A stretch of DNA of 64,000 nt, from NCBI GenBank assembly GCA_018366495.1, contig JAGZHZ010000003.1:32611-96610 (forward strand). The letters run 5' to 3'. Position 1 is the first letter of the stretch; each line of letters starts with the position of its first letter. The position numbers were made by a program, and so were the translations under genes. Origin of the DNA: Clostridiales bacterium (lineage in GTDB: Bacteria > Bacillota > Clostridia > Lachnospirales > Lachnospiraceae). This document shows, one piece after another, positions 1-53,665 of the stretch. The notes beneath the pieces were generated by a model. The model was given only the letters and a program-made list of their open reading frames with translations, did no database searches and had not been told where the DNA came from.

Positions 1-342
1 CGCTGTTAGTTTTTCTTCCTGTTCCTTCAGCGTCGTCTGCTGTTCTGACAGCTTGGCTGCCTGTTCTTCCAGCTTTGTCTTCTGGGAAGCTAACAGCTCA
101 TTTTGGCTTTTCAGGAGCGCTTCCTGCTGTTCTACCGTCAGTTTCTGCTGATCCAGCTCATTTGTATACTGCGCCTGCATTGCCATTCGCTCTTCCTGCT
201 CTGCAATTTTTTCATCATAGTTTTTCTGCGCTTGAAACAAAGTTACACACATAATCAATACAAACAGCATCAAAAGTCCGGCCATCATGTCAGAATAGGA
301 ACGCCATACATTAAAATTGTTTGACTCTCTGCGTTTGGACAT
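1..342 (-). CDS. MotB/OmpA-family stator-type protein, N-terminal part (partial, 3' end beyond window start)
   Basis: Reverse strand reads MSKRRESNNFNVWRSYSDMMAGLLMLFVLIMCVTLF..., an open frame to position 1. The W-x-x-Y-S-D-M-M-A-G-LL-x-x-F segment is the MotB-type plug/TM motif with the conserved Asp. It is followed by a Q/E/K-rich coiled coil. ATG is at complement 340..342 with AAAGGAA RBS, 24 nt after the MotA-like stop. The ORF track misses it because it has no in-window stop. Confidence 0.55.
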   Translation of the reverse strand, partial: MSKRRESNNFNVWRSYSDMMAGLLMLFVLIMCVTLFQAQKNYDEKIAEQEERMAMQAQYTNELDQQKLTVEQQEALLKSQNELLASQKTKLEEQAAKLSEQQTTLKEQEEKLTA

Positions 343-365
343 ATTACCATTCCTTTCTGATCTTC

Positions 366-2135
366 CTATCTAAAAAGTGAAAACTTTCCATTCTTTTGAA
401 TTGCTTTCACAAATTCCCTCATGATACTGTTCAGTTCCTCAATCAGTTCACTCTGTCTCTCGCCCTCTTCCTCAAGCACTTGCTCTAAATGCTTAATCAT
501 CTGAGGATCAAACTCCGGTGTCTGTTCCTTGGCTGCTGCAGTCTCTCTGCCTAACTGCACACGGTTTGCCGCGCCGGATACCTCAATCTGATTCAGCAAG
601 TCTTCCATATTGCGCAGAACAGTGAAGATCATATTCTGCGCATCCACAAACTCTCCGACTCTCTGGTTGTAATTGAGAATCAGTTTCTCATTTGCTTTAT
701 ATAACTCTTCAAATGCAGTATATACTTTTCCTTCTCTGTCAATAAATTCTTCTTTTAACGCTTCCAGACTTGCCATAAGATCTTTCTGAGAATCTTCATA
801 TCCTTTCAGCAGATTTACATTTGTCTTTCCGATTTCCTGAATATCACCAAATGCCTTTGAAGCAGAATCTAGGTATTTCTGCATAGTCTGGTTACATGCC
901 ACCCAGAATTTTGCTGATTTTTCTTCTGCTTCCTGCATATAAGAGACGGTATGGCGGCAGCTTTCATTCTGTGCTTCTGCCAGTTCCTGATTTTTCTGCA
1001 TCGTCTCTTCCATCGCCTGTGTATACTGCTTCTGAATATCCGTCATCTCCTTGACAATCTGTCTCATGGAGTGGTCTTCTTTTAAGAAGGAATTATTTAA
1101 TTCCACACTCAGCTGCTGGAACAGTTTTTCTGTATACAGCACATTTCGCTTCTGTGAACTTGCCATCTCTTCCACGGCTGCATTAAATCCTGCAAATTCT
1201 ATATGGAAAGATTCTCTCAGCTGCTTTAAAAATTGTCCTACCAGCTCGTCCAGAACTTCTTTCTGACTTTTTGAAATCGTAGACAGCATGACGTCAAGCG
1301 ACTCATTCATCTTCTGAAAAGCCGGTGTAATCGTCGTCTCAAAACTGCTTACAAGTTGTTTTGAAAATTCCTGAGCCATGTTCTGCATCATTTTTGTCTG
1401 TTCCTGCTGGTAAGCAAGCATTGTATTTCTGGACTCTGCTTCCGCTGAAGGAACGACATGTCTGTGGAAAATGTCCAAGAAACGCTGCAGCGTCATCATA
1501 AGACCTGAATATTCTGACTTCATACAGTAAGAATAAGACAAAGACAGAGATAATCCATAAATTGATGTCAAAAACGCCACTTTAATTCCTTCCACTAAGG
1601 AGACGACAGAAGTTGTCATTGCCTCATAGTTAGAAGGTTCAAAATCTCGAAGTCCCCATACAAGTCCCACGAATGTTCCCAGAATACCCATACTGGTCAA
1701 AATATCAGGAACCATCTCCAGCATTCTTTTTTGAATCATTCCATCAATTTCATCTGCATTGATGTAATCTTCGATATCACATACTCCAACTTTACTCCGA
1801 TACCAGTCATGCAAAAATTTTTCCATTCTTTCTTTTAATCCTTTATAGGAAAAAATTCTTCCAAGACTCTGAAAACGATTTTTCTTTTCTTCCTGATTTT
1901 CCTCTTTAATCTGCTCCAGTTTTCCTGCCGCCATATCGAGCGCGGTATTCATCTGTCCCATGCGCACCAGCCCGCCGGCTACTGCCACGATACAGATTAA
2001 AATCATAACCCCTAAAAATCCAAAGTTATATACCATCATGGAAAATGCTGCATCTGTTCCAACAAACAATGTCAATCCAATGCACGCTGCAATGACAGCG
2101 GCAAACAGCACTCCTCCAAACACTCTATGCCCCAT
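366..2135 (-). CDS. MotA/TolQ/ExbB-family proton channel with ~360-aa C-terminal coiled-coil tail (ZorA-like)
   Basis: 4-TM MotA topology: TM1-TM2, an ~90-aa cytoplasmic loop, then TM3 with the MGILGTFVGLVWGL signature and TM4. Residues ~230-589 are an uninterrupted heptad-rich helical region (Q/E/K/L). ATG at 2133..2135 with GAGAGGAG RBS. Confidence 0.6.
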   Translation of the reverse strand: MGHRVFGGVLFAAVIAACIGLTLFVGTDAAFSMMVYNFGFLGVMILICIVAVAGGLVRMGQMNTALDMAAGKLEQIKEENQEEKKNRFQSLGRIFSYKGLKERMEKFLHDWYRSKVGVCDIEDYINADEIDGMIQKRMLEMVPDILTSMGILGTFVGLVWGLRDFEPSNYEAMTTSVVSLVEGIKVAFLTSIYGLSLSLSYSYCMKSEYSGLMMTLQRFLDIFHRHVVPSAEAESRNTMLAYQQEQTKMMQNMAQEFSKQLVSSFETTITPAFQKMNESLDVMLSTISKSQKEVLDELVGQFLKQLRESFHIEFAGFNAAVEEMASSQKRNVLYTEKLFQQLSVELNNSFLKEDHSMRQIVKEMTDIQKQYTQAMEETMQKNQELAEAQNESCRHTVSYMQEAEEKSAKFWVACNQTMQKYLDSASKAFGDIQEIGKTNVNLLKGYEDSQKDLMASLEALKEEFIDREGKVYTAFEELYKANEKLILNYNQRVGEFVDAQNMIFTVLRNMEDLLNQIEVSGAANRVQLGRETAAAKEQTPEFDPQMIKHLEQVLEEEGERQSELIEELNSIMREFVKAIQKNGKFSLFR

Positions 2136-2168
2136 ATTATCACTCCTCTCTTTTTTCCTTTCGTCTTT

Positions 2169-3443
2169 TTAACCTTTTTTGCATCTTTCTGCAATTTGAT
2201 TCGCTTTTTCATAAATCTTTTCCGGATCTTCTCCTACAGAAAATTCTCCATTTTGATAAAGAATCTTACCATTTACCATTGTCAAGGCCACATTTTGTTT
2301 GCTTCCGCTGTAGACAAGGTTTTTCGTCAGATTATTAATTGGCTGCATATTTGGCTGATGCAGATCAATCAAAATCAAATCTGCCAATTTTCCTTCTGCA
2401 ATTGTATCACAGTCAAACAGCCGCATCGCTTTCGCACTTCCTGTTGTCGCCATAAACAGAACTTGATTTGCATCTACGCAGGAGGCATCTTTTTCTCTCA
2501 GTTTTGCAAGTCCTGTCGTCAGGAACATCTCACGGAACATATCAAGACAGTTATTGCTTGCTGGTCCATCTGTTCCGATTCCAATATTGATTCCCATTTC
2601 CATCATCTGCCGAATTGGTGCGATTCCACTTGCCAGTTTTGTATTGGATCCCGGATTTGTCACAACAGACATTCCTCTTTCCCGGAAAATTTTCAGATCT
2701 TCTTCATTGACCCAGACACAGTGATATCCGCCGCCGCCATAATTGAACATTCCCAGACTGTCCAGATAAGCAGTCGGTGTCTTGCCATGGCGTTCCATAC
2801 ATCCTTTTGTCTCTTCTTCTGTCTCAGACATATGTGTATACACCGGCGCATGGTACGTCTCTGCCAGCTGAGCCAGCTCCTTCATCAGCTGTTCCGACGC
2901 CGTATATTCTGCGTGAAGTCCCAGTTCAAACCGGATTAATTCATGGAAATGATTATAGTGCTCGTACCATTTCTCCAATTCCTGAACGGACTGCGAAAAA
3001 TTGTTCACTCCGCCCACCATGACGGTTCGAAATCCCATATCCACAGATGCCTGAGCAATCGTGTCCGGCGTCAGGTACATATCAAAATTGGAAGTGATAC
3101 CACTTGTCAGATATTCCAGAATCGCCAGCTTGGAAAGATCATAAATATCATCCGGGGTCAGTTTTGCCTCCATCGGAAATACCTGTTTGTTTAACCAATC
3201 AAGAAGAGGCAGGTCGTCTGCATAGGAGCGCAGAAATGTCATCGCTGAATGCGTATGTGCATTTTTAAATCCCGGCATCAGCAGATTTCCTTTTCCATCA
3301 ATCTCACAATCAAATTTTTCTTTCTCTTCTTTTGGTTTTCCTACGCATATAATACGATTTCCTTCTACCCAGACTTCTCCTTCTAAAATTTCAAATTCCG
3401 GGCCTTTCGTCAAAATCTTGACATTATAAAAACGTGTATTCAT
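2169..3443 (-). CDS. mtaD: Amidohydrolase; 5-methylthioadenosine/S-adenosylhomocysteine deaminase-like
   Basis: 424 aa. N-terminal HTH metal-binding motif (FKNAHTHSAMT) and overall MtaD/chlorohydrolase-family similarity. Confidence 0.7.
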   Translation of the reverse strand: MNTRFYNVKILTKGPEFEILEGEVWVEGNRIICVGKPKEEKEKFDCEIDGKGNLLMPGFKNAHTHSAMTFLRSYADDLPLLDWLNKQVFPMEAKLTPDDIYDLSKLAILEYLTSGITSNFDMYLTPDTIAQASVDMGFRTVMVGGVNNFSQSVQELEKWYEHYNHFHELIRFELGLHAEYTASEQLMKELAQLAETYHAPVYTHMSETEEETKGCMERHGKTPTAYLDSLGMFNYGGGGYHCVWVNEEDLKIFRERGMSVVTNPGSNTKLASGIAPIRQMMEMGINIGIGTDGPASNNCLDMFREMFLTTGLAKLREKDASCVDANQVLFMATTGSAKAMRLFDCDTIAEGKLADLILIDLHQPNMQPINNLTKNLVYSGSKQNVALTMVNGKILYQNGEFSVGEDPEKIYEKANQIAERCKKG

Positions 3444-3467
3444 TTTTTACGCCTCATTTCTTCTATT

Positions 3468-4427
3468 TTACCGTTTTCCTTTATCATAAATTTCTCCCAA
3501 AGCACGCGGTGCCTGATTATGTTTTGAGAAGAAAATCAACAGCAGCAGCGTCATAACGTATGGCAGGGTCATGACAAGGTCAGAATAACTGCTTGGCATC
3601 TGAAGCTGTTTGACAAGGAAATATCCGCCTGATCTTGCAAATCCGAAAATTAAAACAGCACCCAGCGTTGGAAGAATCTTCCAGTTTCCAAAAATCATTG
3701 CAGCAATGGCAAGATATCCATATCCCACATAAATACTGGATGAGAAATTTGCGGAGATTGAATATGCAAAACAGATTCCGGCAAGTCCGGACAGCGCTCC
3801 TGATACCATGACAGCAATCAGTCTGACTCTTCCCACATTGATTCCTGCCGCGTCCACAGCATGAGGGTTATCGCCGCACGCTCTTAAATGCAGTCCAAAA
3901 CGTGTCTTATACAGCACATACCATGCAATCACTGCTACTACAATAATAATAAATTCAAACGGATAAATCTGCTGAAAAATACCTCCAATTACAGGAATTT
4001 CAGAAAGCACCGGGATTGTGATACGCTCTGAAACACCCAGTACAAATTTATCTGATGTTGCTCCAAATACACTTTTGTTGATTGCTTTTGTCAAAAATGC
4101 AGTCAGCGCCATTCCTAAAATGTTAATTACAACGCCGCTGATTACCTGATTGGCTTTGAACTTAATACAAAGCAGTGCATGAAGCATTGCATAAACCATA
4201 CCTCCCAGCATTGCAAAGAGCAGCGCTCCATAAAATGGGATCTGTGAGCTTGTTCCAAGCCACTGCATCATAAAAACTGCAGAAAGTGCTCCGACAAATG
4301 CACCGACACCTTGCAGTCCTTCCAACGCCAGATTCGTAATTCCGCTTCTCTCAGAATAAATGCCGCCGATTGCCATGATGAATAAAGGCAGTGCAAAAGA
4401 AAGACCATCAATAAAAATCGTATTCAT
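3468..4427 (-). CDS. ABC transporter permease (BMP-family nucleoside/sugar importer, second permease)
   Basis: Polytopic 319-aa protein typical of the YufQ/NupQ-type permeases of BMP nucleoside transporters. Confidence 0.7.
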   Translation of the reverse strand: MNTIFIDGLSFALPLFIMAIGGIYSERSGITNLALEGLQGVGAFVGALSAVFMMQWLGTSSQIPFYGALLFAMLGGMVYAMLHALLCIKFKANQVISGVVINILGMALTAFLTKAINKSVFGATSDKFVLGVSERITIPVLSEIPVIGGIFQQIYPFEFIIIVVAVIAWYVLYKTRFGLHLRACGDNPHAVDAAGINVGRVRLIAVMVSGALSGLAGICFAYSISANFSSSIYVGYGYLAIAAMIFGNWKILPTLGAVLIFGFARSGGYFLVKQLQMPSSYSDLVMTLPYVMTLLLLIFFSKHNQAPRALGEIYDKGKR

Positions 4428-5522
4428 TTATTTGTCCTCCTTTCTTCTCTTTGCAATATATCGGATGTACGCGCTGCATGCGCTGAACAGAAGAATAATT
4501 CCTGTGATAACAGATACAATTTCTGCCTGTACACCAGATGTCGAACTCATATAAGTACTTCCCTTACTGATCGTTGTGATCATGAAAGAAGAAAATAAAA
4601 CTCCGATTGGATTACTGTTTCCCAAAAGTGATACAGCGATCGCATCAAATCCCATGCTCGGCAGAACTCCCGGCTGAATTGATCCATAGTATCCCATATA
4701 ATATGTGATTCCGGCAAGTCCTGCAAGCGCTCCTGATATTACCATTGAAAAAATCATTGTTTTTCCGACCTTGATTCCAGCATACTGTGCTGCTGTTCTG
4801 CTCATACCAACCGTCTTAATCTCATATCCAAGCGTTGTTTTTTTCACTAAAAAGTAGACGCAAACAGCTGCAATCACTGCCAGCGGAAATGCAAGCGGTA
4901 TATCAATTTTTAAATTTCCAATCTCCGTATTCATCATCGTCCATCGCGAAGAAGCGCTGATTGCTTTCGACTGTCTGGAAATCGGATCAACATACTGTGT
5001 CTTGATAAAAAAGCTGATAATGTACTGTGCAATATAGTTCAGCATAATGGAGGAAACGACTTCATTGATATTAAACTTATATTTCAAGAAGCCGATCAGA
5101 CCTCCCACAATGGCTCCCACTACAAGACCGATCAGCAGTGCCAATGGTTTTGCAATTCCCGCTGAGAGACTGCTGTATCCTACAATCAGAGTCGATATAA
5201 ACCCAGCTGCAAGCATCTGTCCTGAAACACCGATATTAAACAGTCCTGCCTTAAATGCCACAGCCACTGAAAGCGCTGCAAAAATCATCGGCGTCAGTGC
5301 ATTTAAAAAGCTTGTAAAGTCCGTCAGCATACTCTTATATCCCGCATAGGTAGGCTTTGGCAGGATTCCACATCCCTGCAGCAAATTCATATATGCAGTG
5401 AGCGGATTGTATCCCAGGCAGGCCATGATCAAAGCGCCTGCAAGCAAACCGATCAGAACGGCAAACAGAGGTACGGCGATCGGAGCTGTCTTATCATTAC
5501 TCAACAAATTATCTTTTTTCAT
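4428..5522 (-). CDS. ABC transporter permease (BMP-family nucleoside/sugar importer, first permease)
   Basis: 364-aa polytopic permease. Its start overlaps the ATPase stop. Confidence 0.7.
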   Translation of the reverse strand: MKKDNLLSNDKTAPIAVPLFAVLIGLLAGALIMACLGYNPLTAYMNLLQGCGILPKPTYAGYKSMLTDFTSFLNALTPMIFAALSVAVAFKAGLFNIGVSGQMLAAGFISTLIVGYSSLSAGIAKPLALLIGLVVGAIVGGLIGFLKYKFNINEVVSSIMLNYIAQYIISFFIKTQYVDPISRQSKAISASSRWTMMNTEIGNLKIDIPLAFPLAVIAAVCVYFLVKKTTLGYEIKTVGMSRTAAQYAGIKVGKTMIFSMVISGALAGLAGITYYMGYYGSIQPGVLPSMGFDAIAVSLLGNSNPIGVLFSSFMITTISKGSTYMSSTSGVQAEIVSVITGIILLFSACSAYIRYIAKRRKEDK

Positions 5523-7053
5523 GCTGTTTTACCCCCATCATAAATTCTCCTACTTCATGTGTTGTGAGAGATTTTGCATCTGCAATTTTCTGAATCTCTC
5601 CGTTATAAATTACAGCAATGGTATCGGCACAATTCATAATCTCATCCAGCTCCAGAGAAATCAGTAAAATTGCTTTTCCTTTGTCTCTCTCCCCGATAAT
5701 CTGCTTATGAATCTTTTCGATTGCTCCTATATCCAGCCCTCGCGTCGGCTGAACAAAAATCAGCAGAGAAGAATCCATTTCAATCTCTCGCGCAATAATC
5801 GCTTTTTGCTGATTCCCGCCGCTCATAGACCGGACAACAGTTTTATTTCCCTGTCCGCTTCGGACATCATATTTTTCAATCAGCTCAGAGCTGTATTTGG
5901 AAAATTCTTCCTGTTTTAAAATCCCGTTTTTAGAAAATGGTTCTTTAAAGTAGCTCTTCATTCCCATATTTTCTTCCAACATAAAGTCCAGAACCAGACC
6001 ATATCTCTGTCTGTCTTCCGGTATATACGAAATCCCTTCCAGTGTCCTTTTACGGATACTTTCATGGGTGATATCTTTTCCGTTTAATAAAATTCGTCCG
6101 CCTGCGGCTGGGAGCAGTCCTGCGATTGCATCCGCAAGCTCTACCTGTCCGTTTCCAGACACTCCTGCGATCGCCAGAATTTCTCCTGCGCGGATCGAAA
6201 AAGAAACATTTTTTACAACCTGAAAATGGTTTTCATTTTCAACACAGAGATTTTCGACTTGAAGCACAACTTCTTTAAAATCAGGCTCCTTTTTTTCTAC
6301 CTCAAATGTAACTTCTCTTCCAACCATCAAGTTTGCCATCTGTTTTGTGGATGTCGTCTTTACATCCAATACATCCACCAATTTTCCTCTGCACAAGATT
6401 GCGCAGCGGTCCGCTACTTTTTTTATTTCTTCCAGTTTATGTGTAATTAAAATAATCGTCTTGCCGTTGTCACGCAGTCCTTTTATGATTTCCAGCAAAA
6501 ATTCAATTTCCTGCGGTGTCAGAACGGCTGTCGGCTCGTCAAAAATTAAGATCTCTGCCTCCCGATATAACATTTTTAAAATTTCCACACGCTGCTGAAT
6601 CGAAACATTGACTTCACTGATCTTTTTTGTGGGATCCACTTCCAGACCATATTGTTTGGAAAGCTTTGCAATTTTCTCATTTGCCCCTTTTTTATCTACA
6701 TAAGGAAACAAACCCAAGAATTTTTTTTGCGGTTCAATCCCCATAATAATATTTTCTGCGATTGTATAGTCCTGCACTAATTTAAAATGCTGATGTACCA
6801 TCCCAATGCTTAGTTTTGTAGCATACGTCGGAGAAGCAATTTTTTCTTTTTTTCCATGAATATAAATTTCCCCTTCATCCGGCTCATACATTCCAAACAA
6901 CATACTCATCAAAGTCGATTTGCCGGCGCCATTTTCTCCCAGAAGTGCATAGATTTCACCTTTTTTGATCTGTATGGATACATCACTGTTGGCTACAATC
7001 CCAGGGAAACGCTTTGTAATATGCCTCATCTCCACAATGTACTCTTCCTGCAT
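5509..7053 (-). CDS. ABC transporter ATP-binding protein, two fused ABC domains
   Basis: Walker A GENGAGKST and a second GVSGNGQ motif. 514 aa duplicated ATPase, typical of sugar/nucleoside importers. Confidence 0.85.
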   Translation of the reverse strand: MQEEYIVEMRHITKRFPGIVANSDVSIQIKKGEIYALLGENGAGKSTLMSMLFGMYEPDEGEIYIHGKKEKIASPTYATKLSIGMVHQHFKLVQDYTIAENIIMGIEPQKKFLGLFPYVDKKGANEKIAKLSKQYGLEVDPTKKISEVNVSIQQRVEILKMLYREAEILIFDEPTAVLTPQEIEFLLEIIKGLRDNGKTIILITHKLEEIKKVADRCAILCRGKLVDVLDVKTTSTKQMANLMVGREVTFEVEKKEPDFKEVVLQVENLCVENENHFQVVKNVSFSIRAGEILAIAGVSGNGQVELADAIAGLLPAAGGRILLNGKDITHESIRKRTLEGISYIPEDRQRYGLVLDFMLEENMGMKSYFKEPFSKNGILKQEEFSKYSSELIEKYDVRSGQGNKTVVRSMSGGNQQKAIIAREIEMDSSLLIFVQPTRGLDIGAIEKIHKQIIGERDKGKAILLISLELDEIMNCADTIAVIYNGEIQKIADAKSLTTHEVGEFMMGVKQHEKR

Positions 7054-7137
7054 ATATTTATCTTCTCCTTATTTTTCCTGATCTCTGCCTCCCGGCACTC
7101 ATAATTTCTGCAAATTTTTCTTACTAAGAAAAGAAAG

Positions 7138-7187
7138 GACTGTCACAAAACAATCCAAACTGTAAATTCTTTGTTTTGAGACAGCCC
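7138..7187 (-). terminator. Intercistronic hairpin/attenuator after substrate-binding protein gene
   Basis: About 15-bp stem GGACTGTCACAAAACAA/TTGTTTTGAGACAGCCC followed by a T-rich tract on the minus strand. Typical SBP-gene attenuator in ABC operons. Confidence 0.5.
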
Positions 7188-7199
7188 TTATTTCCTGTA

Positions 7200-8393
7200 T
7201 TAGTTCAGTCCTGGAAAGTCTTCTGGAGTATATCCGTTAAAGTTTGCAGCCGGTACGATTGTTCCGTCTTTTACCAATGGATAAACCTCATCCAGTTTTT
7301 CCAGTGTATCTTCAGAAAGCTGGTGTCTTCCTTCCTCTTTTACATATCCGGTAGAATCTGTATCTGCCTTCAGCAGTGCATTTTCACCTTTAAATGTTCC
7401 CTCTACGATTGCATTCAGCTGTTTTTCTACGTTTACATCCATCACTTTTAATGCTGATGTCAAAATGATATTTGTGTCGCCGTTTGCTCCATCGTCATAC
7501 TGGTCAACATCACATCCGATTACTTTTACGCCTTCTGCTTCTTTTGCTGCTGTAAATACACCATTTCCTGATCCGCCTGCTGCTACAAACATAATGTCAA
7601 CGCCTTCAGAGATCAACGTGCTTCCGACAATCTTTCCTGTAGCTTCATCTGCAAAGCTTCCAACATAGTTTCCGCCGATTTCTGTATTTGTCACGTCTGT
7701 TCCTGCATAAGATGGCAATTCTACGATTTCTGCATCTGCTCCTAATTTTGCATTTGCATAATTAACGCCAGATTCAAATCCATACTGATAGTTTACATTA
7801 GAAGGATAAGCAATTCCATTTACAACTGCCACTTTATTTGTCTCTGTCTCAAGAGCTGCTGCAACTCCTGCAAAGAAACCGCTTTCCTGCTCTGCAAATG
7901 TCATGGCATATACATTGTCAAGCTCTACTTCTGCTCCTTCTGCATCGGTTGGGTTGGAATCTACTAAAATAAATTTTACATCCGGGTTATCCTGTGCAAT
8001 ACTTCCAATTCCTGCAAACTGGAAACCACAGCAAACAATCACATCATAATCTGCTACAATATCAGCTACTGCCTGAATAGCTGCCGCTACGTCTCCTGTC
8101 TCTTCTTTGACAGCCTGTACGGTTGCATCCGGATGAGATTCAATAAAGCTTAAAATTCCTTCATAATTATTCTGGTTAAAGCTTCCGTCATCCACGCCGG
8201 ATGGACTGCTGACAATCGCAATCTTTAATCCTTCGCCGGATTTTGTTGTTTCTTTTTCATTTTCTTTGACTGTAGCAGCTTCTGTTGTTGTTTCTGTCTG
8301 CTTTTCTGTCTCTTTCTCGTCTTTTCCGCAGCCTGCTGTCATAGCAGCCACCATGGATACGCAAAGCAATACACTCACTAATTTCTTCTTCAT
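7200..8393 (-). CDS. BMP-family (basic membrane protein/Med/TmpC) ABC substrate-binding lipoprotein
   Basis: Lipoprotein signal MKKKLVSVLLCVSMVAAMTAGC. ATG at 8391..8393 with AAGGAGG RBS (the ORF-track start at 8432 is upstream of it). Residues match the BMP nucleoside-binding family. Confidence 0.75.
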   Translation of the reverse strand: MKKKLVSVLLCVSMVAAMTAGCGKDEKETEKQTETTTEAATVKENEKETTKSGEGLKIAIVSSPSGVDDGSFNQNNYEGILSFIESHPDATVQAVKEETGDVAAAIQAVADIVADYDVIVCCGFQFAGIGSIAQDNPDVKFILVDSNPTDAEGAEVELDNVYAMTFAEQESGFFAGVAAALETETNKVAVVNGIAYPSNVNYQYGFESGVNYANAKLGADAEIVELPSYAGTDVTNTEIGGNYVGSFADEATGKIVGSTLISEGVDIMFVAAGGSGNGVFTAAKEAEGVKVIGCDVDQYDDGANGDTNIILTSALKVMDVNVEKQLNAIVEGTFKGENALLKADTDSTGYVKEEGRHQLSEDTLEKLDEVYPLVKDGTIVPAANFNGYTPEDFPGLN

Positions 8394-23725: not shown

Positions 23726-23797
23726 AGCACGAGACGGGATTCGAACCCGCGACCCTCGCCTTGGCAAGGCGATACTCCACCACTGAGCCACTCGTGC
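23726..23797 (-). tRNA. tRNA-Gly (anticodon GCC)
   Basis: Cloverleaf: acceptor GCACGAG/CTCGTGC, anticodon loop TTGCCAA, T-loop TTCGAAT, discriminator U. Confidence 0.85.
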
Positions 23798-42688: not shown

Positions 42689-42731
42689 TTCTTTTTCTAT
42701 TGTCAGACAATTCAAATAGATAAAAGAAAAA

Positions 42732-42804
42732 CACACCCGGAGGGATTCGAACCCCCGACACGTGGTACCGGAAACCACTGCTCTATCCCCTGAGCTACGA
42801 GTGC
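42732..42804 (-). tRNA. tRNA-Arg (anticodon CCG)
   Basis: Cloverleaf: D-arm GCTC/GAGC, anticodon stem GTGGT/ACCAC with loop TTCCGGT, T-loop TTCGAAT. Two G-U pairs in the acceptor stem. Confidence 0.75.
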
Positions 42805-43060
42805 GTATACGTCCATTGCCTATTCATCTTTACGCTGTTTGGGCATATCACATAAACTCCTGTATTCTGTCTCTCTCTTCCGGTCATCAAAAGATTGTCT
42901 CTCTTCATATTTCAAGCTGCAATCTCTTCTCAAGCAGAACTGTGCCAAACAACGATAGTATGATATCACATCTCATAAGCTTTGTCAATTTTTTTCCCTT
43001 CTATTTGTATATTTTACCACGAAACAGGCATAAATTTCTTCTCTTCTGACCTATCAAAAA

Positions 43061-49225: not shown

Positions 49226-52200
49226 TTATCCCTGAAAATCAAACAGCGATAATTGATTTGATTCCGGAAGTCCATTTAAAATTCCCAGCTCTGTCATCAG
49301 ATCAATCACAGTCTTGCTGACCTTCGTCCGCTCCCGAAAATCATCTTTTGATAAAAATGTTCCCTCTTTCGCCGCATCTACCACAGCGTCCGCCGCCTTA
49401 TCTCCAAGTCCCTCTATTGTGCTTAAAGCCGGCATCAGCTTGCCGTCTAAAATCTGGAATCGTCTCGCCTGGGCCTTGTACAGATCAATCGGCAGGAATG
49501 TAAAGCCTCTGGCATACATTTCACGCACAATTTTCATATCTTTATAGGTATCCTGTTCTTTTTTCGACAGCTTATCATATCTTTTTTTGTATTCTTCCAT
49601 ATGATATAACAGTTTTGCCTGTCCCTGACACATCAGTTCATAGCTAAAAGAAGACGCCCGAATGCTGAAGTAAGCTGCATAGTAAGCAAGCGGATAAAAT
49701 ATCTTAAACCATGCAATACGGAATGCCATCATGACGTACGCCGCTGCATGGGCTTTCGGAAACATATATTTAATCTTTTTGCAAGACCAGATATACCAGT
49801 CCGGAACATCATGTTTAAGCATCTCTTCTTCCCATTCCGGCTTCAGGCCTTTTCCCTTTCTTACACTTTCCATAATTGTAAAGGAAAGTTCACTCTCCAA
49901 TCCCATATGAATCAGATATGTCATAATATCATCTCGCGTACAGATCGCTGTTGAGATCGTCGCCTTTCCCTCCTGAATCAATGTCTGCGCATTTCCAAGC
50001 CACACATCCGTTCCGTGCGACAATCCAGAAATACGCACCAAGTCGGAAAAGGATTTTGGCTTTGTATCTACGAGCATCTGAATAACAAAGTCTGTTCCAA
50101 ATTCAGGTATACCAAGCGCTCCAAGCGGACAACCGTCGATATCCTCCGGTGTAATCTTCAGCGCAGATGTATTTAAAAATAAAGACATCACTTCTTTATT
50201 ATCGAGAGGAATTGTCTTTGCATCAATTCCTGTAAGGTCTTCCAGCATTCGGATCATCGTCGGATCATCATGGCCGAGAATATCGAGTTTTAATAAGTTA
50301 TGATCAATAGAATGGTAATCAAAGTGCGTTGTGATAATGTCTGTTGTCATATCATTTGCCGGATGCTGCACCGGTGTAAAAGAATAAATCTCTTCTCCAT
50401 GAGGAAGCACGATAATTCCTCCCGGATGCTGTCCTGTCGTTCTTCTGACCCCAACGCAGCCCTGTGCAATTCTGGCTACTTCACATCCTCTTTTACTTTC
50501 GCCATGTTCTTCAAAATAATTTTTCACATATCCATATGCCGTTTTCTCAGCCAGAGTGCCGATCGTTCCGGCACGGAAAGTCTGACCTTCTCCAAAGATA
50601 ACTTCTGTATATTTATGAGCCTTACTCTGATAATCGCCTGAAAAGTTCAAATCAATATCCGGTTCTTTGTTTCCTTTAAATCCTAAAAATGTCTCAAATG
50701 GAATATCAAATCCCTCTTTTTTCAGAGGTTTTCCGCATTTAGGGCAGTCCATATCAGGCATATCGCACCCTGCTCCTCCGACATACGGTTTTACATAGTC
50801 AGAATCAAAATCACTGTAATGACAGTGCGGACAGTAATAATGCGGTCTCAGCGGATTTACCTCTGTAATTCCAGCCATTGTAGCTACAAACGAAGATCCA
50901 ACCGATCCTCTGGAACCTACAAGATAACCATCCTCATTCGATTTCCACACAAGCTTCTGCGCGATAATATACATCACCGCAAATCCGTTTGAAATGATGG
51001 AATTGAGTTCTCTCTCCAGCCGTTCTTTTACGACTTCCGGCAATTCCTCTCCATATATTTCATGCGCCCTGTTATAACAGATATCACGCAGTGTCTGATC
51101 TGAATTTTCAATGACAGGAGGACATTTATCAGGGCGTACAGGTGAAATTTTTTCACACATATCTGCAATTTTTCTTGTATTTGTGATAACAACCTCTTTT
51201 GCTTTATCGCTGCCCAGATATGAAAATTCTTTCAGCATCTCCTCCGTCGTGCGCAGATACAGCGGAGCCTGCTCGTCTGCATCATCAAATCCTTTTCCTG
51301 CCATGATAATACGCCGATACACTTCATCTTCCGGGTCGAGAAAGTGGACATCGCACGTCGCAACCACCATCTTCTGAAACTCTTCCCCCAGCTTCACTAT
51401 TCTTTTATTGATACGGATCAGATCTTCTTCTGACTGAATGTTTGGATACTTATCGCTGCGGATCATAAACCCGTTGTTTCCAAGAGGCTGAATTTCATAA
51501 TAATCATAGAATTCAGCAAGCCGTGCCACTTCCTGTTCGGGACGATCATTCAGAATCGCCTGATACAGCTCTCCTGCTTCACATGCCGACCCAATCAGCA
51601 GACCTTCTCTGTTTTTCAGAAACTCACTTTTTGGAATTCGCGGTCTTCTGTTATAATATTGAAGATGAGAATAGGAAATCAGCCGATACAGATTGATTCT
51701 GCCCACATCATTTGTAGCGAGTAAAATTGCATGGTATGTGGGCATCTTTTTTATCTTATCCGTATTATTTGCCCCAAGTTCATTTACCTGATCGAGAGAT
51801 ATAATCTCTCTGTCTTTCAGCATTTTTACAAATTTCACAAAAATTTCTGCCGTACACTCTGCATCATCGACTGCACGGTGATGATTTTCCAATGAAATCT
51901 GCAGTGTTTTCGCCACGGTATCCAGTTTATAGCGGTTGAGCTGCGGAAGCAGAACTCTGGCAAGCGCCACCGTGTCAATACTCGTAAATTCTCTCTCTAT
52001 TTTCTGTCTTCTGCAGTTCTCCAAAATAAAGCTCATATCAAACGATGCGTTGTGCGCTACCATAACAGCTCCCTCGCAGAATTTTAAAAACTGCGGTAAA
52101 ATCACATCAATCGTGTCACTGTCCATCACCATCGCATCGTTGATCCCTGTCAATTCTTCAATCCGAAATGGAATCGGAACTTTTGGATTTACAAATGTGC

Positions 52201-53665
52201 TGAATCGGTCTGTGATTTTTCCATTCTCCACACGTACTGCGCCAATCTCAATAATCTTGTTGTGAACAGGACTGAATCCTGTTGTCTCCAGATCAAATAC
52301 GACAAATGTTCCGTCCAGACTCTGATTTTTAGAATTTTCCACAAGACTTTGCAGATCATCGACCAGATATGCTTCTGTCCCATAAATCACCTTAAAATCA
52401 TCATCCGGTGAGACTGCATGGTTGGCATCTGTAAACGCCTGAACGACGCCATGATCTGTGATGGCGATGGCCTTATGTCCCCATTTGGCTGCACGCTTGA
52501 TAATGTCTTTGACATCGGACACGCCATCCATATCGCTCATCTTCGTATGGCAGTGCAGTTCCACTCTCTTTTCTGCATAGGTATCTTTTCTCTCCACGCG
52601 GAAATCCTGAATCTTTTTAATTCCGACAAGAGAGCCGATCGTCAACTGGCTGTCAAAGCGGTCGATCGTCGTCACTCCCTTTACTTTCAAAAAAGCACCT
52701 TTTTTGATATGTGACAGGATCTCCTCACATTGATCTTTTTTCACAAAGATCTTCATCACAAACGTATCGGTAAAGTCTGAAAGCTGAAAAATCACAATCG
52801 TCTTTTCATTTCTGATCTCTTTTGTCTCTACCTCGAGCACTTGACCGTGTACTGCAACTTCTCCCATCTCTCCCTGAATATTTTTCATCGGAATAATCTC
52901 ATCGTCAAAGCTTCTTCCGTAAATTACATCCGGGTCATCTGATCTTTTCACGTTGGAATAATAGTTCTCCCGCCGCTCAAATTTGAGAATATTGCCATTT
53001 TTCGGCTTCTCCTTCGCTGTTTCTTTCTGCTCTGCCTTTTCTTCCTGCTGACTCTTCTTCTCTTCTCGGATTTCTGCACGTCTTTGTTTTACCTGCTCAA
53101 TCACAGCCTCGACTTCCTGCTCAATCTGAATCTGACTGTTTTTCTTTTCCAGGCTTTCCTCTGCCTTCTCGATCTCTGCATCAATCAGTACAGAGAATCC
53201 GCATCTGTCATCGAAAATTTTTTCCAAAATTCTCACTAAATCTTTCAGCTTCTCTTCCAGAAAAGCAGAATCAGGTACTTTCATTTTCAGCTCTCTTTCA
53301 TTTTTAAATGAAAATTCTGCCTGACGAAACAGATTGTATTCAAATATACTATATTGTTTCAGCTCCATCAAAATACTGCTGCGATACTCTTCCAGCAGTA
53401 TTTGCGGCGTATATTGCTTTGACAGTTTGAATTTTTCAATGATCTTGACCTGAATATCAATTCCTTGAAAGATCTGCTGTGCAATTTCATGTTCCATCTG
53501 ATAGATATATTTTTTTTTGATCAGCTTTTCACTGTACAGAAAAATATGTAAAAAATCTTTTCTGGAAGTAACACTTACTTTCGTCACCTGCGCTTCCCCA
53601 AACAGCATTTTCAATGTACTGTTCAGATTCAGCGTAGAAAATACATCAAAAAAAGGTTTTCCCAT
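49226..53665 (-). CDS. polC: PolC-type DNA polymerase III alpha subunit
   Basis: About 1480 aa with PHP domain (HCHTKMSDMDG), DEDDh exonuclease (DLETTG), the Zn-finger CPHCH...CPKCG and the Pol III palm/fingers. The ORF-track first codon is GTG. The likely ATG is at 53663..53665. Confidence 0.95.
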   Translation of the reverse strand: MGKPFFDVFSTLNLNSTLKMLFGEAQVTKVSVTSRKDFLHIFLYSEKLIKKKYIYQMEHEIAQQIFQGIDIQVKIIEKFKLSKQYTPQILLEEYRSSILMELKQYSIFEYNLFRQAEFSFKNERELKMKVPDSAFLEEKLKDLVRILEKIFDDRCGFSVLIDAEIEKAEESLEKKNSQIQIEQEVEAVIEQVKQRRAEIREEKKSQQEEKAEQKETAKEKPKNGNILKFERRENYYSNVKRSDDPDVIYGRSFDDEIIPMKNIQGEMGEVAVHGQVLEVETKEIRNEKTIVIFQLSDFTDTFVMKIFVKKDQCEEILSHIKKGAFLKVKGVTTIDRFDSQLTIGSLVGIKKIQDFRVERKDTYAEKRVELHCHTKMSDMDGVSDVKDIIKRAAKWGHKAIAITDHGVVQAFTDANHAVSPDDDFKVIYGTEAYLVDDLQSLVENSKNQSLDGTFVVFDLETTGFSPVHNKIIEIGAVRVENGKITDRFSTFVNPKVPIPFRIEELTGINDAMVMDSDTIDVILPQFLKFCEGAVMVAHNASFDMSFILENCRRQKIEREFTSIDTVALARVLLPQLNRYKLDTVAKTLQISLENHHRAVDDAECTAEIFVKFVKMLKDREIISLDQVNELGANNTDKIKKMPTYHAILLATNDVGRINLYRLISYSHLQYYNRRPRIPKSEFLKNREGLLIGSACEAGELYQAILNDRPEQEVARLAEFYDYYEIQPLGNNGFMIRSDKYPNIQSEEDLIRINKRIVKLGEEFQKMVVATCDVHFLDPEDEVYRRIIMAGKGFDDADEQAPLYLRTTEEMLKEFSYLGSDKAKEVVITNTRKIADMCEKISPVRPDKCPPVIENSDQTLRDICYNRAHEIYGEELPEVVKERLERELNSIISNGFAVMYIIAQKLVWKSNEDGYLVGSRGSVGSSFVATMAGITEVNPLRPHYYCPHCHYSDFDSDYVKPYVGGAGCDMPDMDCPKCGKPLKKEGFDIPFETFLGFKGNKEPDIDLNFSGDYQSKAHKYTEVIFGEGQTFRAGTIGTLAEKTAYGYVKNYFEEHGESKRGCEVARIAQGCVGVRRTTGQHPGGIIVLPHGEEIYSFTPVQHPANDMTTDIITTHFDYHSIDHNLLKLDILGHDDPTMIRMLEDLTGIDAKTIPLDNKEVMSLFLNTSALKITPEDIDGCPLGALGIPEFGTDFVIQMLVDTKPKSFSDLVRISGLSHGTDVWLGNAQTLIQEGKATISTAICTRDDIMTYLIHMGLESELSFTIMESVRKGKGLKPEWEEEMLKHDVPDWYIWSCKKIKYMFPKAHAAAYVMMAFRIAWFKIFYPLAYYAAYFSIRASSFSYELMCQGQAKLLYHMEEYKKRYDKLSKKEQDTYKDMKIVREMYARGFTFLPIDLYKAQARRFQILDGKLMPALSTIEGLGDKAADAVVDAAKEGTFLSKDDFRERTKVSKTVIDLMTELGILNGLPESNQLSLFDFQG

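Follow-up and report, generated by a model that had tools for sequence, protein, structure and literature searches.

Results and discussion

A pair of motor-like genes at the start of the window

Here, we report a pair of adjacent genes, termed A and B, at the beginning of a 64,000-nucleotide stretch of DNA (hereafter the window; contig JAGZHZ010000003.1 of assembly GCA_018366495.1, positions 32,611 to 96,610) from a Clostridiales bacterium of the family Lachnospiraceae. The pair encodes homologs of ZorA and ZorB, the two motor proteins of the Zorya anti-phage systems (Table 1). Gene A is complete, whereas gene B starts at position 342 of the minus strand, reads MSKRRESNNFNVWRSYSDMMAGLLMLF / MSKRRESNNFNVWRSYSDMMAGLLMLFVLIMCVTLF and so on, Asp18 included, and leaves the window at its edge. 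In public records, A is named "MotA/TolQ/ExbB proton channel family protein" and B "OmpA family protein." The identical 589-amino acid A protein is encoded on many human-gut metagenome contigs. Since one metagenome contig, designated L001, is nearly identical to the window, i.e., 1 of 2135 bases differs over A-B and 0 of 10,000 differ upstream, we consider it a valid extension of the locus. The complete B protein on L001 is 367 amino acids long and has a short N terminus, a transmembrane (TM) helix carrying Asp18, a helix spanning residues 13 to 209, and an OmpA-like domain.

Profile and fold searches place both subunits nearest to ZorA and ZorB

Protein A matches 17 PADLOC models of ZorA1, ZorA2, and ZorA3 with E values from 3.6e-20 to 1e-5 and nothing else notable. 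When a 10-sequence profile of A was searched against the PDB sequences, Shewanella ZorA (8vvn_C) was reached at 8.5e-21 and Escherichia coli ZorA (8qyy/8qyd) at 3e-18 to 1e-14; the flagellar MotA 8gqy reached 0.21 only. Foldseek with the model of A gave the same order: the top six matches are ZorA chains (E 5e-7 to 3.5e-4; TM-score normalized to the target, TMt, 0.61–0.69), followed by ExbB/TolQ (E ~1e-2, TMt 0.4–0.5) and then by MotA/PomA (TMt 0.25–0.32). A direct alignment with the annotated zorA product of a Pseudomonas plasmid (29% identity, 240 residues, E 3e-19) spans TM3-TM4 and enters the proximal tail. Full-length B matches the PADLOC ZorB1 model PDLC00609 at 4.6e-66, with its stalk as an insertion, and its PDB profile reaches E. 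coli ZorB (8qyd_F) at 1.9e-22 versus 5e-4 for MotB (6ysf); Foldseek on the model of B did not discriminate ZorB from other OmpA-like domains. The precomputed Pfam label of A and its relatives is PF28082 (ZorA-like_t1), without a mark of a weak or faint match; the name of this family shows that the likeness to ZorA has already been recognized by curators. The curated NCBIfam cut-offs for Zor proteins are all missed, the best scores being 74.7 bits against 100 for A (NF033915) and 76.3 against 400 for B (NF041788). By sequence profiles and predicted fold, no other 5:2 motor family comes as near to the two proteins as ZorA/ZorB, and the ZorA-ZorB likeness and gene order proposed in the original prediction, which was made from the window sequence alone, hold for both subunits.

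The same searches bear on whether the pair could be a flagellar or other motility stator of the MotAB/MotPS type, to which we give practically no chance. Some sources do label relatives of the pair "flagellar motor component" or "chemotaxis protein MotB," and Pfam MotA_ExbB and MotB_plug match weakly; however, both matches stay under their gathering scores, the E value of MotA quoted above compares with 1e-20 for ZorA, MotA is the poorest of the three fold matches, and flagellar genes were seen in no flank examined. Profile scores, fold scores, and flanks effectively refute a flagellar stator. The plug of MotB type that had been predicted in the partner is not supported: the MotB_plug match is below its cut-off and covers the TM part of the model only. 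Blautia, the genus at the center of the A family, is described as non-motile.

The membrane core and the cytoplasmic tail of A

The AlphaFold2 (AF2) model of A, built on a 26-sequence alignment, has helices at residues 2–26, 31–76, 136–161, and 170–289 with a predicted local distance difference test score (pLDDT) of 70–87 across residues 1–230. Taking hydropathy and the model together, the membrane helices are predicted at 2–26, 31–~57, 136–161, and ~185–205, with a cytoplasmic insert of ~80 residues at 58–135. The open reading frame (ORF), the hydropathy, and the model thus agree with the MotA/ExbB-type protein with four TM helices that had been described, with GILGTFVGL at residues 150–158. 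The PADLOC ZorA models align only from about residue 33–42 of A, so that TM1 has no counterpart in them. The ion filter described for E. coli ZorA, T147 and S184 (PMC11946911), is matched in the alignment by T154 and S191 of A, both of which are invariant in 26 homologs.

The tail (residues ~206–589, ~380 residues) is predicted to be nearly all helical, with AF2 helices at 170–289, 294–430, 442–515, and 544–581. Its length and helicity stand as first described, but it is neither proline-free nor heptad-based: there are four prolines (P229, P271, P540, and P544), the first two of which are invariant in the family, and the hydrophobic periodicity is 3.6–3.75 rather than the heptad value of 3.5. 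Residues ~230–335 are homologous to the proximal tail of ZorA1. Farther along lies the patch SAKFWVACNQTMQKY. Across 26 sequences with an overall identity of only 43–86%, its residues A408–Q416, M418, and Y421 do not vary (alignments A1 and A3), and the patch is conserved even where the identity elsewhere is no more than 43–47%. The C terminus ends in a basic cluster and then G[LF]F, with KNGKFSLFR, KKKKGLFR, and RRGLFGR as instances in the family; this arrangement is found in 119 of 119 close homologs and in 111 of 112 broader Lachnospiraceae homologs of A, compared with 0.3% of control internal 14-mers and about 12% of the more distant ZorA relatives. We take it to resemble a short membrane-targeting or docking peptide.

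The stalk and the peptidoglycan-binding domain of B

In B, the RSYSD/TM region aligns with the segment FWISYADLMTAMMVLF of E. coli ZorB, such that Asp18 falls on Asp26, and it is invariant in 13 homologs. The C-terminal alpha/beta domain matches Pfam OmpA at 9e-11, i.e., the peptidoglycan-binding domain that the original prediction had suggested looking for in the extended partner is present. Its Y283, N284, L287, and R291 have the same spacing as Y151, N152, L155, and R159, the peptidoglycan-binding residues of E. coli ZorB (PMC11946911). Together, these alignments show that the pair is a ZorA/ZorB homolog in which the predicted catalytic and anchoring residues are intact.

Between the TM helix and the OmpA-like domain are ~170 helical residues. 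AF2 gives one continuous helix (residues 13–209, pLDDT up to 94), and residues 66–191 form about 18 uninterrupted QxxxLxE heptads; of what was said earlier of the partner, the TM segment with a conserved Asp and the coiled coil, here of perfect heptads, stand, and only the plug is unsupported. We measured the stalk as the distance from the motif FQAQK at the end of the TM helix to the motif IIGVKA at the start of the OmpA-like domain. This distance is 93–194 residues over 112 homologs, and the B protein of the window, with 156 residues, is among the longest. Because 102 of the 112 share the same value modulo 7, the stalks differ in length by complete heptads and preserve their angular register. 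Judged from the sequence, a rigid coiled-coil element for transmission or spacing would need such phasing. At the DNA level, a 42-nucleotide tandem repeat (4.4 copies, 71% matches; L001:12052-12237, partly window 1-~85) encodes heptad pairs of the stalk. A third conserved gene or small ORF was sought after B and none was found.

Table 1. Features of the A-B locus and of related loci, in window coordinates unless a locus is named
Feature	Position	Strand	Remarks
Gene B, 5' part, ZorB-like, first 114 of 367 codons	1..342	-	Complete gene, L001:11794-12897
Start of the extracellular coiled-coil stalk of B, residues 38-114 in the window	1..228	-	Stalk runs on to ~209
RSYSD motif with Asp18 and single TM helix, B residues 14-37	232..303	-	Alignment to E. 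coli ZorB
A-B spacer, 23 nt, with ribosome-binding site AAAGGA	343..365	-	Direct sequence reading
Gene A, ZorA-like subunit	366..2135	-	589-aa ORF; stop codon 366-368
C-terminal basic and G[LF]F-type peptide of A, KNGKFSLFR	369..395	-	Homolog comparison
Cytoplasmic helical tail of A, residues 210-589	369..1508	-	AF2 helices, periodicity, dN/dS
Tail patch of A, residues 407-421, nearly invariant	873..917	-	Alignments A1 and A3
Membrane core of A, residues 1-209	1509..2135	-	AF2 and hydropathy; four predicted TM helices
GILGTFVGL motif of A, residues 150-158	1662..1688	-	T154 aligns with E. coli ZorA T147 (HMMER, 8qyy_A)
Spacer between mtaD-like gene and A, 33 nt	2136..2168	-	Strong ribosome-binding site; without terminator-like site
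mtaD-like amidohydrolase gene upstream of A	2169..3443		Amidohydro_1
6S RNA and T-box features, Blautia locus L017	1784-1962 and 5335-5557		
6S RNA and T-box features, Blautia locus L054	1532-1710 and 5195-5419		

The neighborhood of the pair holds no Zorya effector

On L001, gene B is followed by a gene for a 491-amino acid cell-wall-binding CAP protein and then by parE, parC, rimP, nusA, ylxR, L7Ae, and infB. This extension lacks any helicase, nuclease, EH-signature, HNH, DUF3348, or DUF2894 gene. ZorC, ZorD, ZorE, ZorF, and ZorG, the first three of which (ZorC/D or ZorE) had been expected beyond position 1, are absent beside the pair in the extension and in 91 related loci, where the neighbors are housekeeping genes; no effector lies within about 10 kb of the pair in any locus examined. 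Since the sequence seen for this genome amounts to ~85 kb, the absence of effectors is meant in cis only. The Pfam content of the window itself is of the housekeeping kind, and no defense gene was detected in its 64 kb: a PADLOC scan of its 53 ORFs of at least 90 amino acids returned the ZorA models for A and otherwise generic matches (ABC ATPases, PLD-domain proteins, and PolC). Neither an ortholog of the NlpC/P60 or transglutaminase-core genes described below nor a paralog of A or B was found elsewhere in the window. We consider that the pair, as far as its sequence and neighborhood tell, is not a canonical Zorya system and is a predicted effector-less ZorAB-type motor of monoderm bacteria.

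For comparison, the canonical type I Zorya system on the Pseudomonas aeruginosa plasmid pPAG5 has the order zorA, (zorB), EH-domain ZorC, and DEAD-box ZorD, and it adjoins a restriction-modification system and insertion sequence (IS) elements. Its zorB is unannotated, and the ORF, which stops after 191 amino acids, may be frameshifted (L096:10800-11560).

The pair is a vertically inherited module under purifying selection

At least 577 encoded matches were found in species-representative genomes (one genome per species). The best 80 of these, which were kept as loci, belong to Blautia, Marvinbryantia, Candidatus Limivivens, "Robinsoniella," and unnamed Lachnospiraceae; among the matches listed, the nearest species representative of the window is a metagenome-assembled genome named "uncultured Robinsoniella sp." (92% identity). 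Genes A and B are adjacent and on the same strand in all 91 of the related loci for which sequence after A was available. The housekeeping flanks are fixed inside a genus and differ between genera. In the genus of the window, the order is nucleoside ABC transporter, mtaD, A, B, CAP, parE, and parC; in Blautia, it is SpoIID-domain gene, BrkB, pheS, pheT, histidine phosphatase, A, B, a variable slot (MetAP, ZIP, MatE, or ThiT), rplS, lepB, ylqF, and rnhB; and in Marvinbryantia, it is hisH, hisF, UDG, A, B, CoA-activase, and tgt.

Both genes are under strong purifying selection. Against the 92% relative (L007), the ratio of nonsynonymous to synonymous substitution rates (dN/dS) is 0.035 for A and 0.034 for B, with 0.011–0.071 for the flanking housekeeping genes; comparisons with L008-L010 were unusable due to saturated dS. 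Along the tail of A, the ratio with L007 is 0.014 for residues 210–430, the most constrained part, and 0.077 for 431–589. In 41 Blautia-type loci, pairwise distances correlate between A and PheT (r = 0.64) about as between PheS and PheT (0.67), and between A and B at 0.88; all Mantel tests gave 0/999. A tblastn search with A and B of 72,556 plasmids and 50,697 phage records returned nothing close: apart from one weak match to a phage, it reached a genuine zorA of Pseudomonas and an unrelated OmpA protein only. Among 2.9 million viral contigs, there was a single relative, with a host-like flank. These observations, which are drawn from sequence, show the pair to be a vertically inherited core-genome module of the Blautia/Marvinbryantia/Limivivens/"Robinsoniella" branch of Lachnospiraceae.

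In the single viral relative (L097, IMG/VR, match at 3210-4682), B is followed by host genes of Blautia, among them an rplS-like ORF; this contig probably represents a flank of the host or was misclassified. Three further loci labeled as Holdemanella biformis, Ruminococcus bicirculans, and Prevotella sp. CAG:279 (L057, L075, and L082, respectively) have Blautia-type synteny around the pair, probably through bin contamination.

It is at this point that the pair as a genuine anti-phage system has to be weighed, i.e., as a minimal or monoderm-adapted Zorya in which ZorAB senses phage envelope perturbation and the tail activates an unlinked effector or acts alone, for example by dissipating the membrane potential. 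The closest characterized relatives of both subunits are all Zorya components; the length of the tail of A and the constraint on it are as needed for Zorya function (PMC11946911); the long stalk could let a ZorB reach the Gram-positive wall; and the relaxed "[system]_other" rules of PADLOC accept two co-localized defense genes (PMC8565338). Even so, we consider such a system unlikely. ZorAB alone is insufficient for defense in the tested systems (PMC8565338, PMC11946911), and Zorya is reported to be under-represented in monoderm, i.e., single-membrane, bacteria (PMC11946911). The missed NCBIfam cut-offs, the missing effectors, the synteny together with the dN/dS of A, and a tail patch that is invariant across genera all argue the same way, and the pair has no association with a defense island, mobile element, plasmid, or phage, unlike the Zorya I system of pPAG5 with its restriction-modification and IS surroundings. 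The original prediction had left two choices, a Zorya-like defense module or an undescribed ion-driven machine. A lack of Zor-like effector genes beside the pair and a family-wide tail, which it had itself named as speaking against defense, are what was found, and it is the second choice that survives.

Comparison with known 5:2 motors

Type I Zorya ZorA/ZorB (E. coli 8QYD; Shewanella ANA-3 8VVN; PMC11946911, PMC11890865) gives the best sequence and fold match of the pair. In both, the B subunit has an Asp in its TM helix and the peptidoglycan-binding motif YNLxLSxxR, the A subunit has the Thr/Ser filter and a long helical tail in the cytoplasm, of non-heptad type and homologous in its proximal part, and the B gene follows the A gene. 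The differences are also clear. The pair is without zorC/zorD (type I), zorE (type II), and zorF/zorG (type III) in cis, its host is a monoderm, and its context is that of a core genome rather than of defense islands; Zorya is typically patchy or in a defense-island or mobile-element context, which is not strictly defining, and the pair is neither. In contrast to E. coli ZorA with its three TM helices (PMC11946911), A has four, the extra one being N-terminal, and its tail is shorter than that of type I ZorA (~380 versus ~507 residues) and ends in the basic-G[LF]F-type peptide. In E. coli ZorB, the peptidoglycan-binding domain is fused to the TM helix without a linker (PMC11946911), whereas B has the ~170-residue stalk in between.

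MotAB, PomAB, and MotPS belong to the same 5:2 superfamily and share with the pair the four TM helices of the A subunit and the OmpA-like domain of the B subunit; the similarity is very weak, and unlike them, the pair lacks the plug-linker, the torque-generating loop, and the flagellar context and has the long tail. ExbBD and TolQR(-Pal) are the second-best fold matches of A and, being housekeeping envelope motors run by proton-motive force, a functional analogy. However, ExbD and TolR have no OmpA domain and work via TonB/TolA in diderms, whereas B has such a domain, and the tail of A has no counterpart in ExbB/TolQ. No TonB- or TolA-like neighbor of the pair was seen in the flanks examined. 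An ExbB/TolQ identity of A was rejected on the profile and fold scores. Finally, B aligns end to end (2–349 versus 4–347 of 350) with the PRK09039-type "peptidoglycan-binding protein" (NF006543), which has the same layout of TM helix, coiled coil, and OmpA domain; B scores 61 bits where the cut-off is 305 and so falls outside this family. We know of no established function for PRK09039-type proteins.

Broader family and neighboring cell-wall enzymes

A search of 1.84 billion cluster representatives gave 2991 clusters at E values up to 1e-3, with the full tail in only about seven. More divergent versions of the pair occur elsewhere in Lachnospiraceae; there, A is 445–604 amino acids long and carries the PF28082 label, and the A-B pairs are in housekeeping settings. 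In eight of the 10 broader-family loci with upstream sequence, an orthologous gene for an NlpC/P60 endopeptidase with choline-binding repeats lies no more than two genes upstream on the same strand (L087, L088/L089, L091, L092, L093, L094, L099, and L100). The outer flanks differ among these loci (proC...V-ATPase, proC...F-ATPase, trmB...holB, glmS...Big_2, and aroE...sbcCD). Genes of the transglutaminase-core, GDPD, and sulfatase families also adjoin the pair in the broader family. In the genus of the window, the gene 38 nucleotides past B (L001:12935-14410, just beyond position 1) encodes the CAP protein mentioned above, a secreted protein in which a C-terminal CAP/SCP domain is combined with six choline-binding (cell-wall-binding) repeats. 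These neighbors suggest a connection of the pair with cell-wall enzymes.

By analogy with FtsEX-CwlO/PcsB or TolQR-Pal, the motor might energize or gate such an extracellular enzyme, i.e., the NlpC/P60 endopeptidase or, in the genus of the window, the CAP protein, with the stalk of B as the transmission. This would be a sub-case of a housekeeping role, and we regard it as improbable. The persistence of the NlpC/P60 gene in eight loci despite their different outer flanks, the closeness of the CAP gene to B, and a stalk that is long, rigid, and of constant heptad phase are consistent with it. On the other side, the NlpC/P60 neighbor is missing in about 70 Blautia/Marvinbryantia loci; its distance to A is 175–263 nucleotides, sometimes with other genes inserted, which means that the two are not tightly linked as an operon; the CAP gene occurs in one genus only; and a B subunit anchored on peptidoglycan would itself stay still.

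In one locus, a ZorA-like protein with the PF28082 label stands without an OmpA/ZorB-like partner (L090:1-11056; 572 amino acids, gene at 6001-7719). The same-strand order is VWA, Tubulin_2 (1178 amino acids), a 552- and a 181-amino acid protein, the ZorA-like protein, a 551- and a 171-amino acid protein, and patatin, which looks like an uncharacterized conflict or defense-type system. Because of this context, an A-type protein appears to be used in at least one other, conflict-system-like setting.

A possible envelope-coupled role for the pair

The pair is probably a motor, and its function is possibly non-immune, as read from sequence and synteny. We are somewhat inclined to assign to it an envelope-coupled housekeeping or sensing role rather than motility or classical mobile defense. 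In such a scheme, five A subunits would surround two B helices (A5B2), and the B dimer would form a rigid heptad coiled-coil stalk of ~170 residues, which corresponds to about 25 nm at 0.15 nm per residue. This stalk would carry the OmpA-like domains over the gap between the membrane and the wall of the Gram-positive envelope, and the axle would thus be fixed to peptidoglycan. Proton flow through D18 would turn the A pentamer together with its ~380-residue cytoplasmic tail, on which the patch at 407–421 and the C-terminal basic-G[LF]F-type peptide are the probable output or contact sites. The pair might then act as a proton-motive-force-dependent transducer coupled to the envelope, in wall-membrane sensing or in wall remodeling.

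Several points weigh against an envelope-coupled, non-immune motor, and we list them here together. E. coli ZorAB (PMC11946911) is the source from which both the 5:2 stoichiometry and the rotation are extrapolated. The AF2 model of the tail of A has a pLDDT below 50, low confidence being expected because this is a monomer model of an oligomeric bundle, and the tail may be a straight five-helix tube or folded back. The evolution of A is about threefold faster than that of PheT (mean distances of 0.38 and 0.13, respectively). The NlpC/P60 neighbor is absent in the clade of the window itself, the intervening genes vary, and this neighborhood may be residual synteny of related genomes. Effectors could be encoded elsewhere in the genome, of which ~85 kb was seen. 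Lastly, a location in the core genome does not exclude immunity.

If the envelope-coupled reading is nevertheless extended to the whole lineage, ZorAB-type motors would not only be immune sensors: a monoderm lineage of gut Firmicutes would possess, as a core component, an effector-less proton-motive-force machine with a heptad-quantized stalk of ~14–29 nm to the thick wall and a rotating tail with a housekeeping role, such as wall-membrane mechanosensing or wall-hydrolase control. We put this forward tentatively, with rather less than even confidence. If true, tailed 5:2 motors would form a wider class, with Zorya immunity as one of its specializations. So far, ZorAB motors with tails have been studied in the Zorya setting only; the literature that we searched has no report of ZorA-like or ZorAB-like pairs, and its reviews of 5:2 motors and stator evolution are without such orphan pairs. 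The effector-less lineage described here occurs abundantly and in conserved form in a clade that is among the commonest of the human gut. The long phase-keeping stalk of its ZorB and, in its ZorA, the additional TM helix and the C-terminal peptide look like adaptations to the Gram-positive envelope. The pair offers a natural experiment on the action of a ZorAB motor by itself, and it may reveal a new proton-motive-force-dependent envelope function in Firmicutes. On the practical side, the relaxed PADLOC rules (PMC8565338) could mislabel these core genes as partial Zorya.

Other features of the window and of related loci

The 33-nucleotide spacer between the mtaD-like gene and A was searched for a terminator-like site and none was found, as had been noted in the original prediction; we infer from this spacing that A may be co-transcribed with the mtaD-like gene. 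This junction is specific to the genus of the window. Of the 53 window ORFs, 47 are on the minus strand. Other genes of the window include a PolC-like ORF of 1479 amino acids (49226-53665), ligA, ispG, asnB, hom, opp-type ABC transporters, and two PLD-domain proteins, and the tRNA genes comprise tRNA-Gly (23726-23797) and tRNA-Arg (42731-42805). A riboswitch or leader upstream of A was sought in nine loci, and only T-box, 6S, and tRNA matches were obtained, all elsewhere. In Blautia loci, a 6S RNA gene and a T-box leader (5' of pheS) lie a few kb upstream of the pair and are ordinary features.

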